Part shown: positions 605-14,574 of the stretch, piece by piece
Layout: every line of letters begins with the position of its first letter
Position numbering within the stretch: position 1 is the first letter of the stretch
IMG/VR virus record: IMGVR_UViG_2703718820_000014
DNA: 18,596 nt
From: a virus
Taxonomy: Duplodnaviria > Heunggongvirae > Uroviricota > Caudoviricetes
Strand: one strand, 5' to 3'
Notes under the pieces: model-generated
Told to the model about the DNA's origin: nothing
The model's input: only the letters and a program-made list of their open reading frames with translations
Database searches by the model: none
Translations under genes and position numbers: made by a program

Positions 605-610
605 GCATGT

Positions 611-635
611 AAAAAGGCTCCTGCGATGAGGAGCC
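611..635 (-). terminator. Candidate rho-independent terminator on - strand (ggctcct/aggagcc hairpin, T5 on - strand)
   Basis: Perfect 7-bp stem 616-622 with 629-635 and a 6-nt loop; the A5 run at 611-615 is the T-run on the - strand. Lies downstream of the methyltransferase gene. Confidence 0.4.
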
Positions 636-892
636 TGGATATATGCCTAATCTCTGTATACAGCATGATGCCGGGTGCCTCCCGGTGAATTCTGCAATGA
701 CCAGACAGAATCCGCAACTTGCCTATACAATACGCAACCAAACATCTGTCATTATGCCCCTCCGCTCAGGGGGATTCACCATGCCTGTTCCTTTTAACAA
801 ACGCCCCGCAAAACAGACAACTGTCAACCGTCTGAATTGTGAGACATTTAAAATTTTCGGGGCGTAACTGATACCCGGTTAATTCTGCAATA

Positions 893-2515: not shown

Positions 2516-3088
2516 TTATTGATCAGTTTGCAACATTTTTTTCTCTGTAACAAAAGCCATACGCATGGGGGCATGTAACATAAATTCAGATATCCCCAAC
2601 CACTGATCAATTCGGCGTCTGCACGTAACCAACGTCCACTCAGGATGATCTGCATTTAACCTTTCGGCCATTTTCAGTTTGCTCATTCCTCGTCCTTCGT
2701 ACCTTTGCCGGAGAATATTGATTAGCCCGGGATATTCCCCAAGCACCTCACTGATAACGCGATCAATAATCAACGCCTCTGTGTCTGTACAATGTGACAA
2801 CCAGCTCTTCTGCTTCCCTCTGGTCATATCCCGAAAAAATGCCTCAAGTTCCGGTTTATCCAGCCCGGATTTCTTCATTCTGCGTAAAACTTCATTAACT
2901 GCTGTTTTCGTCAGCTTTTTCGAAACCAGTAACCGGTTAAACATATTTCCGGATTTACCCCCACCGATATACGACCACCGCCCCCACATCCGTAATTTCC
3001 CCTGGATCCAGACTGCTTCCAGCGTGTTCAGGCGTAAATGTTCGCCGCTTTTGCCTGTAATTTCCGGATATATCATATTTACGCTCAC
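2516..3088 (-). CDS. Putative late-gene antiterminator Q-like protein
   Basis: 190-aa ORF directly downstream of rusA with a GTGA start/stop overlap (alternative ATG at 3076), followed by a terminator hairpin. Assignment rests on position; there is no similarity to lambda Q itself, so the family is uncertain. Confidence 0.5.
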   Translation of the reverse strand: MSVNMIYPEITGKSGEHLRLNTLEAVWIQGKLRMWGRWSYIGGGKSGNMFNRLLVSKKLTKTAVNEVLRRMKKSGLDKPELEAFFRDMTRGKQKSWLSHCTDTEALIIDRVISEVLGEYPGLINILRQRYEGRGMSKLKMAERLNADHPEWTLVTCRRRIDQWLGISEFMLHAPMRMAFVTEKKMLQTDQ

Positions 3089-5187: not shown

Positions 5188-5487
5188 ATGACATATGAAG
5201 TCATCATTACTCCTGAGGCCGAACAACAAATAATCAACCTGCACAGATATATAACGGAGAAAGCAGGGAACGTCATTGCTGACAATTATGCCAATGCGCT
5301 TCTTGATTATCTTGATGGGTTTTCTACATTCCCGCATCGGGGCAATAAACGCGATGATATTCGCCAGGGGATGCGGGTAACTCATTTCCGCCACAGAACG
5401 ATTATTGCTTTTGCCGTTGATGGCAGAAAAGTCTTTATTGTCGGTATCTATCATGGTGGGCAAAGTTATGAAACCGATTTCTTATAA
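5188..5487 (+). CDS. parE: ParE/RelE-family toxin
   Basis: 99-aa ORF tightly linked downstream of the ParD-like gene, with the size and gene order of a type II ParDE pair. Confidence 0.8.
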   Translation: MTYEVIITPEAEQQIINLHRYITEKAGNVIADNYANALLDYLDGFSTFPHRGNKRDDIRQGMRVTHFRHRTIIAFAVDGRKVFIVGIYHGGQSYETDFL

Positions 5488-11420: not shown

Positions 11421-11471
11421 ACTTATCAATTTTTTCTGTAGGATCGCGGAACTAGTTTACGAGGGGTGGTG

Positions 11472-11864
11472 ATGATCTTTGTAAAACGCCTTCAGCAGGT
11501 GTTGCAGGAATTGAATATAAACCAGTCAGAGCTGGGAAGACGTCTTGGTGTAAAACCCCAATCCGTGCAAGGTTGGTTGAAAGGCGTGATGCCAAGAATG
11601 GATAAACTGGAAAAATTAGCAGAGCTCTCACAACATCCCGTCCATTGGTTCTTTATGGAAGAAGAAACTCTCGGCGATAAAATGGCTGTATCCAGTAATG
11701 ACAACCAACCGCAACTTACAGAACAACAACGAAAAATCATATCGCTTTTAGATGAGTTACCTCAAAGCGACGCAGAGCAGATCATTCGTGATATGGAGCA
11801 AAAACGCGATTTCTATAAACGGAAACTTGAAGAGTTACTGCGGCAGAAAAACAAAACTGCCTGA
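11472..11864 (+). CDS. DicA/RacR-like prophage repressor (XRE HTH, no S24 peptidase domain)
   Basis: 130 aa from ATG 11472 with GAGGGG upstream. N-terminal HTH (NQSELGRRLGVKPQSVQGWLKG); C-terminal region resembles DicA as recalled (LLDELPQSDAEQ...EELLRQKNK). Confidence 0.8.
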   Translation: MIFVKRLQQVLQELNINQSELGRRLGVKPQSVQGWLKGVMPRMDKLEKLAELSQHPVHWFFMEEETLGDKMAVSSNDNQPQLTEQQRKIISLLDELPQSDAEQIIRDMEQKRDFYKRKLEELLRQKNKTA

Positions 11865-11910: not shown

Positions 11911-12270
11911 TTATAATCCAACCAGGCTTTCCAGGGGGATACCAAATTGATTATGAAGACGGCGAATCATTGGTAACGTAAGGCTTCTGGTACCATTCAA
12001 CACCTCATAAACCCGATTTTTTTTCCCAATTGCGGGTTCCAAATCTTTCACAGTCAGCCCCTGCTGTTCCATGCGAAATCTTATAGCTTCAATTGGGGAT
12101 GGTGGCTCAATGGGATAATGTTTTTTTTCATATTCCTCTATTAGCAAACACATCACCTCAAAAAAATCCCCCTCAGGCGTGTCAATTTCGGGCTCATTGT
12201 CGAACATGGGTTCAACAGCACGCAACGCGGCTTCATAATCTTGCTCTGTACGAATAGGTTTGATGTTCAT
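11911..12270 (-). CDS. higA: HigA-like antitoxin (HTH)
   Basis: 119 aa; motifs IKPIRTEQDYEAAL and GLTVKDLEPAIGKKNRVYEVLNGTRSLTLPMIRRL are typical of HigA. It begins 2 nt after the HigB-like stop. Confidence 0.75.
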   Translation of the reverse strand: MNIKPIRTEQDYEAALRAVEPMFDNEPEIDTPEGDFFEVMCLLIEEYEKKHYPIEPPSPIEAIRFRMEQQGLTVKDLEPAIGKKNRVYEVLNGTRSLTLPMIRRLHNQFGIPLESLVGL

Positions 12271-12272
12271 GC

Positions 12273-12575
12273 TTACTCCAGTTCGATGGTATCAGCATCA
12301 ATAGCATCGTATTCCTTGTGGTTTCCGATGAATTTAACAAATACCCATCCTCGCTGATACGCAATTGCAACAATTAAACGGTAATGATTACCTTTTATGT
12401 TGAATACCACGCGCCGGTTTTTCAATATACTGGCCGTTCGGTATTGTGCCTTAATGTCTGCTGGGCTTTTCCAGTCAGCTTTTGCCGCCTCATCCACCCA
12501 TGCCCTTAGCGGTTGTTCTGCATCAGGATTCTCCGCCCAAAAATCCCTGAGTGTTTTAACTGAGATAATCTTCAT
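12273..12575 (-). CDS. higB: HigB-like toxin (RelE/ParE superfamily)
   Basis: 100 aa from ATG 12575; VFNIKGNHYRLIVAIAY...FIGNHKEYD matches the HigB pattern. Toxin-first gene order as in higBA. Confidence 0.7.
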   Translation of the reverse strand: MKIISVKTLRDFWAENPDAEQPLRAWVDEAAKADWKSPADIKAQYRTASILKNRRVVFNIKGNHYRLIVAIAYQRGWVFVKFIGNHKEYDAIDADTIELE

Positions 12576-12581
12576 AACTGT

Positions 12582-12610
12582 ATAGTAGTCCCATTTTGGG
12601 ACTGATGCAA
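12582..12610 (-). promoter_or_regulatory. Candidate higBA-like promoter with embedded palindromic operator
   Basis: On the - strand: TTGCAT (12610-12605), 17-nt spacer containing the perfect palindrome GTCCCAAAATGGGAC (12588-12602), then TACTAT (12587-12582), ending 6 nt before the ATG. Confidence 0.4.
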
Positions 12611-12620
12611 CAGCTCGCAA

Positions 12621-12675
12621 TTACAAATTTAATAATAAACATGTTGACCAGTTAAATTTTAATTTGTAAATTGTA
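12621..12675 (+). promoter_or_regulatory. Candidate early-left (dicB-operon type) promoter with operator motifs
   Basis: TTGACC (12644-12649), 17-nt spacer, TAAATT (12667-12672), flanked by ATTACAAATTTAA (12620-12632) and ATTTGTAA (12662-12669), the same motifs as in the cro/repressor intergenic region. Confidence 0.4.
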
Positions 12676-12849
12676 TCCATAAACCCACCCCGCCCCACAG
12701 AACGCAGGGCAATACTTCGAGTTACCCGGCAGTGGTCAGGGGTTAAGTAGCCAGCCTGAGGCGTATGAACATGACGGCGGGGATTACGTTTAACTATGCA
12801 GCAGGTTTTTTGTTCCGCTACCCCGGCGTTAAGGGGAAATGAGGTCAAC

Positions 12850-13002
12850 ATGGATACGCTCAATCTTGGCAACAACGAATCTCTGGTATGCGGTGTGTTC
12901 CCTAACCAGGACGGCACGTTTACCGCGATGACGTATACCAAAAGTAAAAAGTTTAAAACCGAAGCTGGCGCGCGTCGCTGGTTAGCCAGAAACACTAACT
13001 GA
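12850..13002 (+). CDS. ydfA: YdfA-like small protein (50 aa)
   Basis: ATG at 12850 preceded by GAGGT. MDTLNLGNNESLVCGVFPNQDGTFTAMTYTKSKKFKTEAGARRWL matches the recalled Qin YdfA sequence. Confidence 0.6.
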   Translation: MDTLNLGNNESLVCGVFPNQDGTFTAMTYTKSKKFKTEAGARRWLARNTN

Positions 13003-13269
13003 TTAGCACCAGTAAAAACAGGTTGCCACTGGTTAATTTACCCTGAAAAGTCAGGGCACAACAGAAAGCACACGGCGAAGGCGTCTTTTCCTTAGAAGGC
13101 TTGTCGTTAGATTTCTTCGACCGTGTGCTTCCGGTTGTGGCAATCCGCGAAATGGCGCGGCGGTAAATATGGCTGGGGGTTTTTATTTCTTTTCCCCTCA
13201 TTGAGGACACCGGGTTGTCAGGTTGACCATATGCCTGAGTGACAACCCCGCCACAACATCTCCATGTTT

Positions 13270-13329
13270 CAATGGCAGTGGTACCTTTGGCGGCATCAGT
13301 TTATTAGCTTTCTGATGTCCGCCCTTTTT
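13270..13329 (+). ncRNA. dicF: DicF-like small RNA (cell-division inhibitory sRNA of dicB operons); ends approximate
   Basis: Stem ggcggcatcag (13289-13299) pairs with ctgatg-t-ccgcc (13312-13323), followed by T5 (13325-13329). The hairpin and its 3' flank closely resemble the recalled E. coli dicF locus; the 5' part is diverged. Confidence 0.55.
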
Positions 13330-13520
13330 AAAGTGAATTTTGTGATGCGGTGAATGCGGCTAAGCGCACGCGGAACAGTTAAAACCGTAAAGTGGTCTTT
13401 TACGGGGCGTAACGGGCATACTTCTGTATTCCGGCGTTAATTGTTAACTGGTTAACGTCACCTGGAGGCACCAGGCACTGCATCGACAAAGTTCACTTCG
13501 GTGATGAAAGGTAAGAGAAA

Positions 13521-14375
13521 ATGTTGAATGTAGCTATTGAAAACCAGAACGGGTGGAATTATAGTGCACCTGCACCTCATAAAACGGGTGCCGGGCGTGG
13601 AAACCCGATGATGATCAACGCGCATAACCGCGCTCAGGCGGTTTTTTTATGCGTCAAGCACAGCCACATTCAAATTATGGTGGGGCGTGCAGGGCAGCTG
13701 CAAGGCTGGCCGGCTCCGTTGGTCACCGGTATTTCCACCCCTGTACGTCTCACCACCTTTATGGTCGTGGAAAACCTCGGTGGTGAGTTATTTAAACTGA
13801 TCAACGAGGCTGCCATCATGGCTACTACCCTTACCCTTTCTCACCCTGACGTAACCATCGAAAATGGTCGCGCAGTCACCACGTCTGTTGCAGTTGCAGA
13901 GTTCTTCCACAAACTGCATAAAAACGTCATTCAAAAAATTGAAGCTCTGGAATGTTCCGACGAATTCACTGAGCTTAATTTTCAGCCCAGCGAATACACC
14001 GACACAACCGGGCGCAAACTCCCTATGTACCAAATCACCAAAAACGGCTTCGTTTTCCTGGTGATGGGCTTCACCGGCAAAAAAGCCGCTGCATTTAAAG
14101 AAGCCTACATCGCTGAGTTCGATCGCATGGAGAAAGAACTGCGCCAGAATAACGCCCCGTCTCCCGACAAAATGATTCACGGGGACGGACGTACCCTGGT
14201 TATCCGTCTCGACGAACACGGCAATATCAAATTCACTGAAACCGTTCCGGACGGCGCAATGGTCTGCACCCTGGATACCTTCCAGTTTTATCTGGAGAAA
14301 CAAGGCTGGACTCTTGTAAACCGGAGCGCAATTAAAAATATGACTGTGGAGCAATTACTAAAAATTCATTGTTGA
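13521..14375 (+). CDS. Rha-family phage regulatory protein (Rha domain starts near Met at 13818; 99 upstream codons are open in frame)
   Basis: The region MATTLTLSHPDVTIENGRAVTTSVAVAEFFHKLHKNVIQKIEAL...FVFLVMGFTGKKAAAFKEAYIAEFDRME is typical of the Rha N-terminal domain. ATG 13521 has a modest SD; ATG 13818 has GAGG 8 nt upstream. Confidence 0.7.
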   Translation: MLNVAIENQNGWNYSAPAPHKTGAGRGNPMMINAHNRAQAVFLCVKHSHIQIMVGRAGQLQGWPAPLVTGISTPVRLTTFMVVENLGGELFKLINEAAIMATTLTLSHPDVTIENGRAVTTSVAVAEFFHKLHKNVIQKIEALECSDEFTELNFQPSEYTDTTGRKLPMYQITKNGFVFLVMGFTGKKAAAFKEAYIAEFDRMEKELRQNNAPSPDKMIHGDGRTLVIRLDEHGNIKFTETVPDGAMVCTLDTFQFYLEKQGWTLVNRSAIKNMTVEQLLKIHC

Positions 14376-14385
14376 GGACGCGATA

Positions 14386-14574
14386 ATGGAAACGTTATTA
14401 CCAAACGTTAATACGTCTGAAGGGTGTTTTGATATTGGTGTTCTGCTCAGTAACCGGGAGTTTACTGAAGATGCCATTAAGATGAGAAAATATGAGCCTT
14501 ATCTTCTCAATGATAATTCCATACTCTCCAGAATTGCCCTTCTTAAACTTGGTATTTTCGGAGGGCAGCAGTGA
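14386..14574 (+). CDS. dicB: DicB-like cell division inhibitor
   Basis: 62 aa; the N-terminus METLLPNVNTSEGCFDIGV...FTEDAI matches the recalled Qin DicB sequence. ATG lies 10 nt after the Rha stop. Confidence 0.7.
   Translation: METLLPNVNTSEGCFDIGVLLSNREFTEDAIKMRKYEPYLLNDNSILSRIALLKLGIFGGQQ

Follow-up and report, generated by a model that had tools for sequence, protein, structure and literature searches.

What does a virus encode in a long stretch of its early region that holds no convincing gene? The question is raised by positions 13003-13520 of IMG/VR virus record IMGVR_UViG_2703718820_000014 (Caudoviricetes; the whole DNA analysed, 18,596 nucleotides (nt) in length, is referred to as the window). 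An earlier note, made from the letters alone, had described this region, which lies between a ydfA-like gene and a Rha gene, as a structured leader of the early-left operon, free of open reading frames (ORFs), that might contain sites for maturation of the small RNA (sRNA) DicF or a cis-acting, put-like antitermination RNA. In the current study the stretch was found to be an intercistronic non-coding spacer that holds a dicF gene, not a transcription leader. It probably serves as the RNA-processing hub ("dicF cassette") of the early-left (dicB) operon in a lambdoid prophage of the Qin/dic type, with the cleavages and the release of an enclosed pseudoknotted RNA domain that are proposed below.

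Homology and coding potential of the spacer

By its sequence, the window comes from a lambdoid prophage of the Qin/dic type, of which it represents the immunity and early region. The top E. coli match to 12600-14400 showed 94.6% identity, and the relatives have the same gene order, i.e. DUF1391 (ydfA), Rha, dicB, DUF1482 and a recE-like gene. Alignment of 12990-13540 revealed 13003-13520 to be a near end-to-end homologue of the ydfC-dicF-dicB spacer in the Qin prophage of E. coli K-12 and in phage Tritos. In an alignment of 29 sequences, in which the window was compared with K-12 Qin, Tritos and 26 other loci, the mean column identity over 13038-13500 was 89%. The genes ydfB and ydfC are present in Qin, Tritos and a further related locus (L002; compared loci are given L numbers where needed) and absent in the window, and for this reason the spacer abuts the ydfA stop codon. 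The gap can be seen when window positions 12996-13040 are compared with L002 3410-3786 and L003 3327-3703. The label of a leader was not borne out, the stretch being an intercistronic spacer with DicF (13276-13324) inside it.

The absence of ORFs holds in a useful sense. Mechanical ORFs of 21-71 amino acids (aa) occur on both strands of the flagged stretch, and none of them combines an ATG, a Shine-Dalgarno sequence and a frame conserved among the 29 homologues. Insertions and deletions of 1, 4 and 5 nt separate these homologues, so that the ORF ends shift. Of all the explanations considered, the least probable is that the stretch hides a small protein gene, either a GTG-initiated ORF on the plus strand (13123-13242) or an ORF on the minus strand (12995-13210). 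Both ORFs do exist, the GTG ORF recurs from the same alignment column in most homologues, and RefSeq annotates an 85-aa minus-strand ORF in L002. However, neither ORF has an ATG or a Shine-Dalgarno sequence, their ends and frames move with the small insertions and deletions, the conserved portion overlaps base-paired RNA, and the K-12 annotation places no gene here. Hidden ORFs were rejected, none having a conserved frame among the homologues. A minus-strand ORF over the DicF precursor region (window 12995-13210; L002 3790-4047) is entered as a "hypothetical protein" in some RefSeq genomes; as its frame is not conserved among the homologues, it is probably spurious.

Taken as a whole, the earlier description stood in part: the inverted repeats and a degree of structure above chance were confirmed, but the label of a leader and the 3' boundary were not. 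The repeats GGGTTGTCA/TGACAACCC (13212-13220/13240-13248) and CCGTAAA/TTTACGG (13385-13391/13399-13405) are present where they had been placed, and the tandem GTTAAC hexamers were located at 13443-13448 and 13451-13456. The repeat CCCTGA/TCAGGG also exists, but at 13041-13046/13051-13056, 3 nt away from the position first given. The hairpin that it forms (13041-13056, plus strand) is not conserved, since K-12-type relatives have CCCTGA..TCAGAC, a third variant is without the hairpin, and it does not appear in the RNAalifold consensus. The two longest repeats were missing from the earlier note; these are 13057-13075/13121-13139, with 19-nt arms, and 13331-13343/13486-13498, which is part of a duplex of 22-23 base pairs (bp). 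Measured against dinucleotide shuffles, the minimum free energy (MFE) of 13003-13330 had a z score of -4.69 and that of 13326-13505 one of -5.39; none of the shuffles was equally good.

A divergent DicF and its probable processing stems

At 13276-13329 on the plus strand, a match to Rfam RF00039 and synteny identified a divergent DicF sRNA, whose intrinsic terminator consists of the stem 13289-13299/13312-13323 and a following T5. The match (13276-13324) scored 36.4 bits, which is under the Rfam gathering score (GA) of 48, and covered all 52 model positions. Its E value was 6.7e-6 when 1.5 kb was searched and 8.3e-5 for the whole window, where it was the only DicF-like match. Column by column, the sequence lines up with dicF as annotated in K-12 and Tritos, which lies in the dicB operon between ydfA(BC) and dicB, and the Rho-independent terminator is present both in the MFE fold and in the alignment consensus. 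The proposal that the region is concerned with DicF maturation thus gained support from homology, although DicF itself had not been recognised inside the stretch. Of 5426 complete E. coli genomes, 16 contain this variant in full, and in these it is unannotated; it is rare, and annotation based on Rfam misses it. Its 5' region and loop differ from those of canonical DicF, and its target set may therefore differ as well. In a crude test with duplexfold, the energy of pairing with the ftsZ translation initiation region was not separable from that of shuffles for the window variant and K-12 DicF alike.

Three DicF species have been described in K-12 (published work, including Ragunathan et al. 2023): a 190-nt species with a 5' end formed by RNase III, a 53-nt form that results from RNase E cleavage and termination, and a 72-nt form with a 3' end produced by RNase III from the full-length RNA. 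Two stems in the window, 13057-13139 and 13330-13498 (both on the plus strand), are probably the counterparts of the regions cut by RNase III in K-12. The former (arms 13057-13075/13121-13139, conserved core 13064-13078/13117-13132) is the probable RNase III site for the 5' end of the 190-nt precursor. Its 19-nt arms are 89% complementary, the stem has 15 consensus pairs, with one compensatory A-U/G-C change, and counting 190 nt upstream from the DicF 3' end on K-12 leads to its 3' arm, equivalent to window 13121-13139. Between this stem and DicF lies the 5' extension of the precursor (13134-13257, plus strand), in which the helix GUUGUGGC/GCCACAAC (13134-13141/13250-13257) encloses two hairpins, one at 13145-13160 and one at 13212-13248 that contains the GGGTTGTCA/TGACAACCC repeat. 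Among the 29 homologues this helix is maintained through U-A/U-G and G-C/G-U changes. The latter stem is an extended duplex (13330-13352/13476-13498, 22-23 bp with one bulge) and the probable RNase III site for the 3' end of the 72-nt DicF, since 72 nt counted from the K-12 DicF 5' end reach its 5' strand just past the DicF U-run, equivalent to 13330-13352. RNAalifold, applied to the 29 homologues, recovered both long stems and the long-range helix.

Structure of the enclosed domain

Within the extended duplex lies a 139-nt pseudoknotted RNA domain of four helices, designated type B (13345-13483, plus strand), which was recognised by a partial Rfam match to STnc100 and by a covariance model (CM) termed R2. 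The closing helix P1 (13345-13352/13476-13483) is followed by a joining AAU and by P2 (13356-13371), which has 5 bp and a bulged A. Next comes the strand CAGTTAA (13376-13382), which forms the pseudoknot with TTAACTG (13444-13450), and then a variable hairpin (13385-13405), an insert that is lacking in K-12. P4 (13433-13441/13451-13459) and P6 (13461-13475) complete the fold. The invariant motif CACCNGGAGGCACCNGGCAC (13459-13478) is matched exactly, where 0 chance matches are expected. Two features of the earlier note find their place here, in that the GTTAAC hexamers are the P4 stem and the pseudoknot strand, and the CCGTAAA hairpin is the variable insert.

A common plan was found in 99 unique instances. 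It consists of an 8-bp closing stem P1, AAU, P2 of 5 bp with a bulged A, a strand pairing with the P4 loop, the variable insert, P4 of 8-9 bp, one nucleotide, and P6 (CCNGG AGGCA CCN'GG), which runs straight into the 3' strand of P1. The window copy has P1, P2, P4 and P6 in this order, with GGUGAAU and the CACCNGGAGGCACCNGGCAC motif, and its P4 loop pairs with a strand 3-5 nt past P2. Because the MAFFT alignment of the family lost the P4 register, a separate parse and a CM-based realignment were used, which biases pair counts towards the model; in the resulting alignment of 98 distinct sequences, 93.5% of the cells were paired compared with 39-45% in slid controls, and compensatory changes were detected in 19 of the 26 pairs. 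The covariation score was 0.514 as against 0.162 in shuffles, and none of 500 shuffles scored as high. A pseudoknot of at least 7 bp can form in 65% of the 51 distinct strand/loop combinations, as against 2.3% when loops were shuffled and 5.5% when partners were mismatched. In all, 35 different helices of the pseudoknot were counted.

Relation to the STnc100/PasD family

In a relaxed Rfam search, 13345-13483 matched positions 30-148 of the 206-position STnc100 model (RF02076) with 29.1 bits, under the GA of 47. Model R2, which was built without dic-type or window sequences, gave 62.9 bits over its full length for the window copy (E ~3e-15) and 66.4 bits for the K-12 spacer. The window contains exactly two copies of the domain. 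The second is of type A (663-784, minus strand; 90.6 bits) and is located inside a full STnc100 sRNA gene (605-813, minus strand; 168 bits), which reaches the Rfam gathering score and has a TTGACA -35 element at 828-823 and an intrinsic terminator at 636-615. This gene lies downstream of a Q-like gene (2516-3088, minus strand; DUF1133 and antitermQ) and a DNA methylase gene (893-1951), and looks like the late-promoter leader RNA of this prophage.

The CACCNGGAGGCACCNGGCAC motif was found in at least 120 viral contigs. Free-standing members of the family form the 5' body of STnc100 and PasD, which are abundant Hfq-associated prophage sRNAs with no function assigned in the literature. These copies, which Rfam calls STnc100, have a P2 that is mostly CCCCC/GGGGG and a P1 of 8-12 bp. 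They often come straight after promoter-like sequences, in the interval from Q to the lysis genes, and are sometimes arranged in tandem. An intrinsic terminator follows in 72 of 84 distinct contexts, at a median of 27 nt; these sRNAs are efficiently terminated, and the leaders in which they are located have to terminate in lysogens. In L104 (4300-5520) three to four tandem units, each with a promoter-like sequence, a type A domain, a spacer of ~25 nt and an intrinsic terminator, lie between a Q-like ORF and the lysis genes, with an isrI match at 5220-5316.

Copies in which P2 is GCGGC/GCCGC are found inside early-left operons. The embedded copies of the dic type have a longer P1, of 21-30 bp, and immediately upstream a terminator of the DicF type. 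The window spacer copy directly follows the DicF terminator and has no terminator of its own until that of IsrK (13626-13648). In L039 a P1 of 22 bp and of unrelated sequence is located between two ORFs, and relatives of this type keep a duplex of 21-23 bp. The order found in a prophage of Pantoea brenneri (L137, 4622-5234, minus strand) begins with a cI-like repressor gene and a PL-like promoter that has operator-like repeats, continues with a small ORF and a terminator hairpin similar to that of DicF (4878-4840), and ends with a type B domain. In spite of unrelated flanks and a large evolutionary distance, it is the order of the E. coli dic operon.

Members of the family were also present in genomes of Pantoea, Rahnella, Enterobacter, Leclercia, Buttiauxella and Scandinavium; the scan of genome contigs used an over-tight gap of 40-70 nt and returned 12 loci, so that it gives taxonomic breadth and not abundance. 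The family adjoins two unrelated Q families. By these sequence matches the spacer domain belongs to a widespread RNA family of Enterobacterales prophages. A full-text literature search for the invariant motif returned no paper; King et al. 2011, Faubladier 1990 and Faubladier & Bouche 1994 might contain the motif or the spacer structure.

Proposed mechanism

According to the mechanism proposed here, transcripts from the dicB promoter would mostly end at the DicF terminator. Cleavage by RNase III in the long stem 13057-13139 would give rise to the long precursor, and a cut by RNase E would yield mature DicF. Read-through past the DicF terminator would allow the 22-23 bp duplex (13330-13352/13476-13498) to form and to be cut by RNase III, which would sever DicF from the downstream mRNA (isrK-orf45-rha-dicB in the window). 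Because both strands of the duplex would be substrates of RNase III, the same cut should also release the 139-nt domain as a discrete folded RNA, an event that is predicted from geometry only. The best guess is that the released domain would act as a stable module for protein or factor binding, or for folding, that serves neighbouring Hfq sRNAs.

Several points weigh against this mechanism. Ragunathan et al. 2023 found no full-length ydfABC-dicFB RNA, so that read-through may be rare. Cleavage of DicF by RNase III and by RNase E in this prophage is presumed by analogy with K-12, and the cut positions were carried over by length arithmetic, which is good to a few nt. The dic-type alignment contains only two compensatory pairs owing to low variation, and the upstream stems are therefore supported mainly by conservation and wobble-compatible changes. 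For the domain, the 98-sequence alignment was fitted to the model structure, so that its counts lean towards the model, and the pseudoknot parse was optimised jointly with P4. Moreover, so elaborate and invariant a domain exceeds the needs of a simple RNase III site, indicating that processing alone does not explain it. We know of no report of a discrete RNA that derives from the dicF-dicB spacer.

Possible alternative functions of the domain

The earlier note had also remarked that no N-like ORF follows the early-left promoter, and that observation was correct, the first gene after the early-left promoter being the DUF1391/ydfA homologue. In addition, no boxA-like sequence was detected in 12680-13520. 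A nut site was rejected for lack of boxA, and a boxB-like CCCUGAAAAGUCAGGG hairpin is not conserved in the relatives. With both N and nut missing, the domain (13345-13483) could be thought of as a put-like, protein-independent processive antiterminator, which would replace N, bind RNA polymerase and carry it past the IsrK terminator (13626-13648) and later ones. The invariant motif of 20 nt points to a conserved host machine as its binding partner, the family is found at the start of operons that need terminator passage (late leaders behind Q, early-left operons behind cI-like genes), it co-occurs with two unrelated Q families, and several copies per phage are possible. Nevertheless, this function is improbable, and the suggestion was not supported. 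When the HK022 locus L004, which holds putL and putR, was searched with the covariance models R1 and R2, no match was obtained at E<=1, and a put-like element was rejected on this result. The domain has four helices and a pseudoknot in 100-140 nt, compared with the two stems and ~70 nt of put. It begins past the DicF terminator and not before it, ~650 nt from the promoter-like site at 12644-12672, and is upstream of the IsrK terminator only. Late leaders already have Q, and most free-standing copies run into an intrinsic terminator shortly afterwards. The accumulation of these RNAs as terminated sRNAs speaks against a constitutive antiterminator, which would prevent it.

A role in sensing or factor binding would better explain the invariant nucleotides. 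It is rather unlikely, although less so than antitermination, that the domain acts in cis as a sensor, be it as an aptamer of the riboswitch kind or by binding a protein of the host or phage. Such a sensor would respond to a signal by tuning termination in late leaders and, in early-left operons, the translation or stability of the cistron that follows. The complexity is typical of aptamers (four-way junction, pseudoknot, invariant GGUGAAU and invariant 20-mer), type A copies have a terminator within ~27 nt, the dicB Shine-Dalgarno sequence of K-12 lies a few nt past the extended P1, and the same domain is present in two operons of one phage. On the other hand, no conserved alternative pairing of the domain with the terminator downstream of it was found, it has no known ligand or partner, and the tandem arrays with promoter-like sequences of their own resemble sRNA genes. 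Pairing of P2 with the terminator as an anti-terminator, hinted at by the Rfam STnc100 consensus, was rejected, being absent in the window copy and the L104 copies. A very improbable alternative is that the domain has a tRNA-like structure and serves as a recognition site for RNase P, or for some other enzyme of tRNA processing, which would define the ends of neighbouring sRNAs, as in C4 of phage P1 and CI RNA of phage P4. The helix order resembles a cloverleaf, P1 (7-8 bp) and P6 (5 bp) adjoin without a gap on the 3' strand and form a stack of 12-13 bp comparable to the acceptor and T arms of tRNA, and a C4-like RNA adjoins; C4 RNA is processed by RNase P. However, the P6 loop has 5 nt and not 7, the P4 loop is taken by the pseudoknot, and the transcription start predicted at P1 in some copies leaves no 5' leader to remove. 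The published cuts beside DicF are ascribed to RNase III and RNase E, and a tRNA-like gene was rejected, as none was reported by ARAGORN.

Beyond the processing hub, it may tentatively be asked whether the 100-140-nt domain represents a new class of structured regulatory RNA in temperate Enterobacterales phages, aptamer-like and able to bind a conserved host factor or a small ligand; this is possible rather than likely. If true, binding would account for the invariant CACCNGGAGGCACCNGGCAC hairpin and GGUGAAU, and paralogous forms would be at work, type B following a DicF-like terminator in the early-left operon and type A preceding tR' in the late leader. In both operons, RNA processing, termination or the output of sRNA would then be coupled to host physiology, and the dicF-dicB spacer of K-12, studied since 1990, would hold an unrecognised functional RNA.

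The DicF cassette as such is textbook prophage biology, and the locus is largely explained as known biology in a new variant. The duplex 3' of DicF, its probable RNase III site, surrounds a pseudoknotted domain that shows covariation and is a homologue of the STnc100/PasD body, which links a 35-year-old model locus of K-12 to a family found in prophages of enterohaemorrhagic and enteropathogenic E. coli (EHEC and EPEC), Salmonella, Pantoea, Rahnella and Enterobacter. Because the K-12 locus, with its easy genetics, is tied to this family, the function of the family becomes directly testable.

Flanking genes and RNAs

Upstream of the spacer, a consensus scan detected a dicBp-like early-left promoter (TTGACC-17-TAAATT; 12644-12672, plus strand) at a position that fits the layout of the K-12 dic operon. 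The last coding sequence (CDS) before the flagged stretch is the ydfA-like DUF1391 gene (12850-13002, plus strand), assigned by Pfam PF07151 (E 3.9e-29) and by the RefSeq annotation of the relative L001. According to the annotation of L001, which is near-identical, the repressor gene (11466-11864) is separated from the dicB promoter by a HigB-like toxin and an antitoxin with a helix-turn-helix (HTH), encoded at 11911-12620 (minus strand). The sRNA RalA, antitoxin of RalR, is located ~5 kb from the DicF cassette in two viral contigs that are related (L055 9891-10069 and L071 11327-11505, both on the minus strand), suggesting a Rac-like context for some dic-type cassettes.

On the 3' side, the Rha start at which the stretch had been closed, 13521, does begin a mechanical ORF of 284 aa (13521-14375, plus strand) that is annotated in RefSeq relatives, but it is probably not a real start, because an immI-like IsrK/orf45/C4 module is located at 13537-13817. 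This module (plus strand; recognised by Rfam matches, the ORF list and a promoter scan) includes a promoter-like site (13537-13565) whose predicted start coincides with IsrK, IsrK itself (13572-13648, 65.7 bits; terminator 13626-13648), an orf45 homologue of 45 aa (13649-13786) and a C4-like RNA (13673-13760, 73.5 bits). The pRha Pfam domain starts at residue 120 of the long ORF, 21 residues past an ATG at 13818, and the Rha/AnrP-like CDS probably starts at this ATG. The tract that is structured and for the most part non-coding thus probably extends from 13003 to ~13817. The 284-aa ORF thus probably swallows the IsrK/C4 RNA module, which is likely to be a recurrent annotation error. Residues 14-108 of the long ORF match Pfam Phage_ASH (PF10554, E 2.5e-15), a protein family that may be built on translated RNA. 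The same frame is open in a Stx2a phage (L139, from 1236) with ~80% identity. A Stx2a phage has IsrK, C4 and Rha without the DicF cassette or the domain, and the IsrK/C4/Rha module and the cassette are therefore separate mosaic modules.

Comparison with known systems

The region 13537-14375 resembles the published Gifsy-1 isrK-orf45-anrP locus (PMC4825925) and the immI c4 region of phage P1 in having IsrK, C4, a 45-aa ORF and Rha/antirepressor in the published order. Unlike the spacer, it is not part of the flagged stretch, and it forms a mosaic module of its own. The putL and putR sites of HK022 are similar in setting only, being cis RNA elements of early transcripts in a lambdoid phage without N. 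The put RNA is ~70 nt long with two stems and binds the zinc-binding domain of RNA polymerase's beta' subunit, whereas the 139-nt four-helix domain shows no similarity to it in sequence or model, is downstream of the nearest terminator, and has free-standing relatives that are terminated.

Excision of structured RNA by RNase III stems is familiar from the pre-rRNA stems around 16S and 23S, and from sites in phage T7 and the lambda N-leader. By analogy, the spacer has a long flanking duplex around a folded RNA, cut within a polycistronic transcript; it differs in that the enclosed RNA is only ~140 nt and its excision is predicted. With STnc100 and PasD the spacer domain has the core fold (P1, P2, P4, pseudoknot and P6) and the invariant motifs in common. 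In contrast to these sRNAs, it has no promoter, seed region or terminator of its own, its P2 is GCGGC/GCCGC and not CCCCC/GGGGG, and its P1 of 22-23 bp is embedded in mRNA after DicF.

The closest counterpart is the ydfC-dicF-dicB spacer of K-12 Qin. The window differs from it in the loss of ydfB and ydfC, in the rare DicF variant with its changed 5' region and loop (36.4 bits), in the additional hairpin of the domain (13385-13405), and in the isrK-orf45-C4-rha module inserted ahead of dicB. Over 13038-13500, however, the two spacers are homologous with ~80% identity. Both belong to the same operon behind a DicA-type repressor, and both have, in the same order, the long stem, the precursor hairpins, DicF with its terminator, and the long duplex that encloses the domain.

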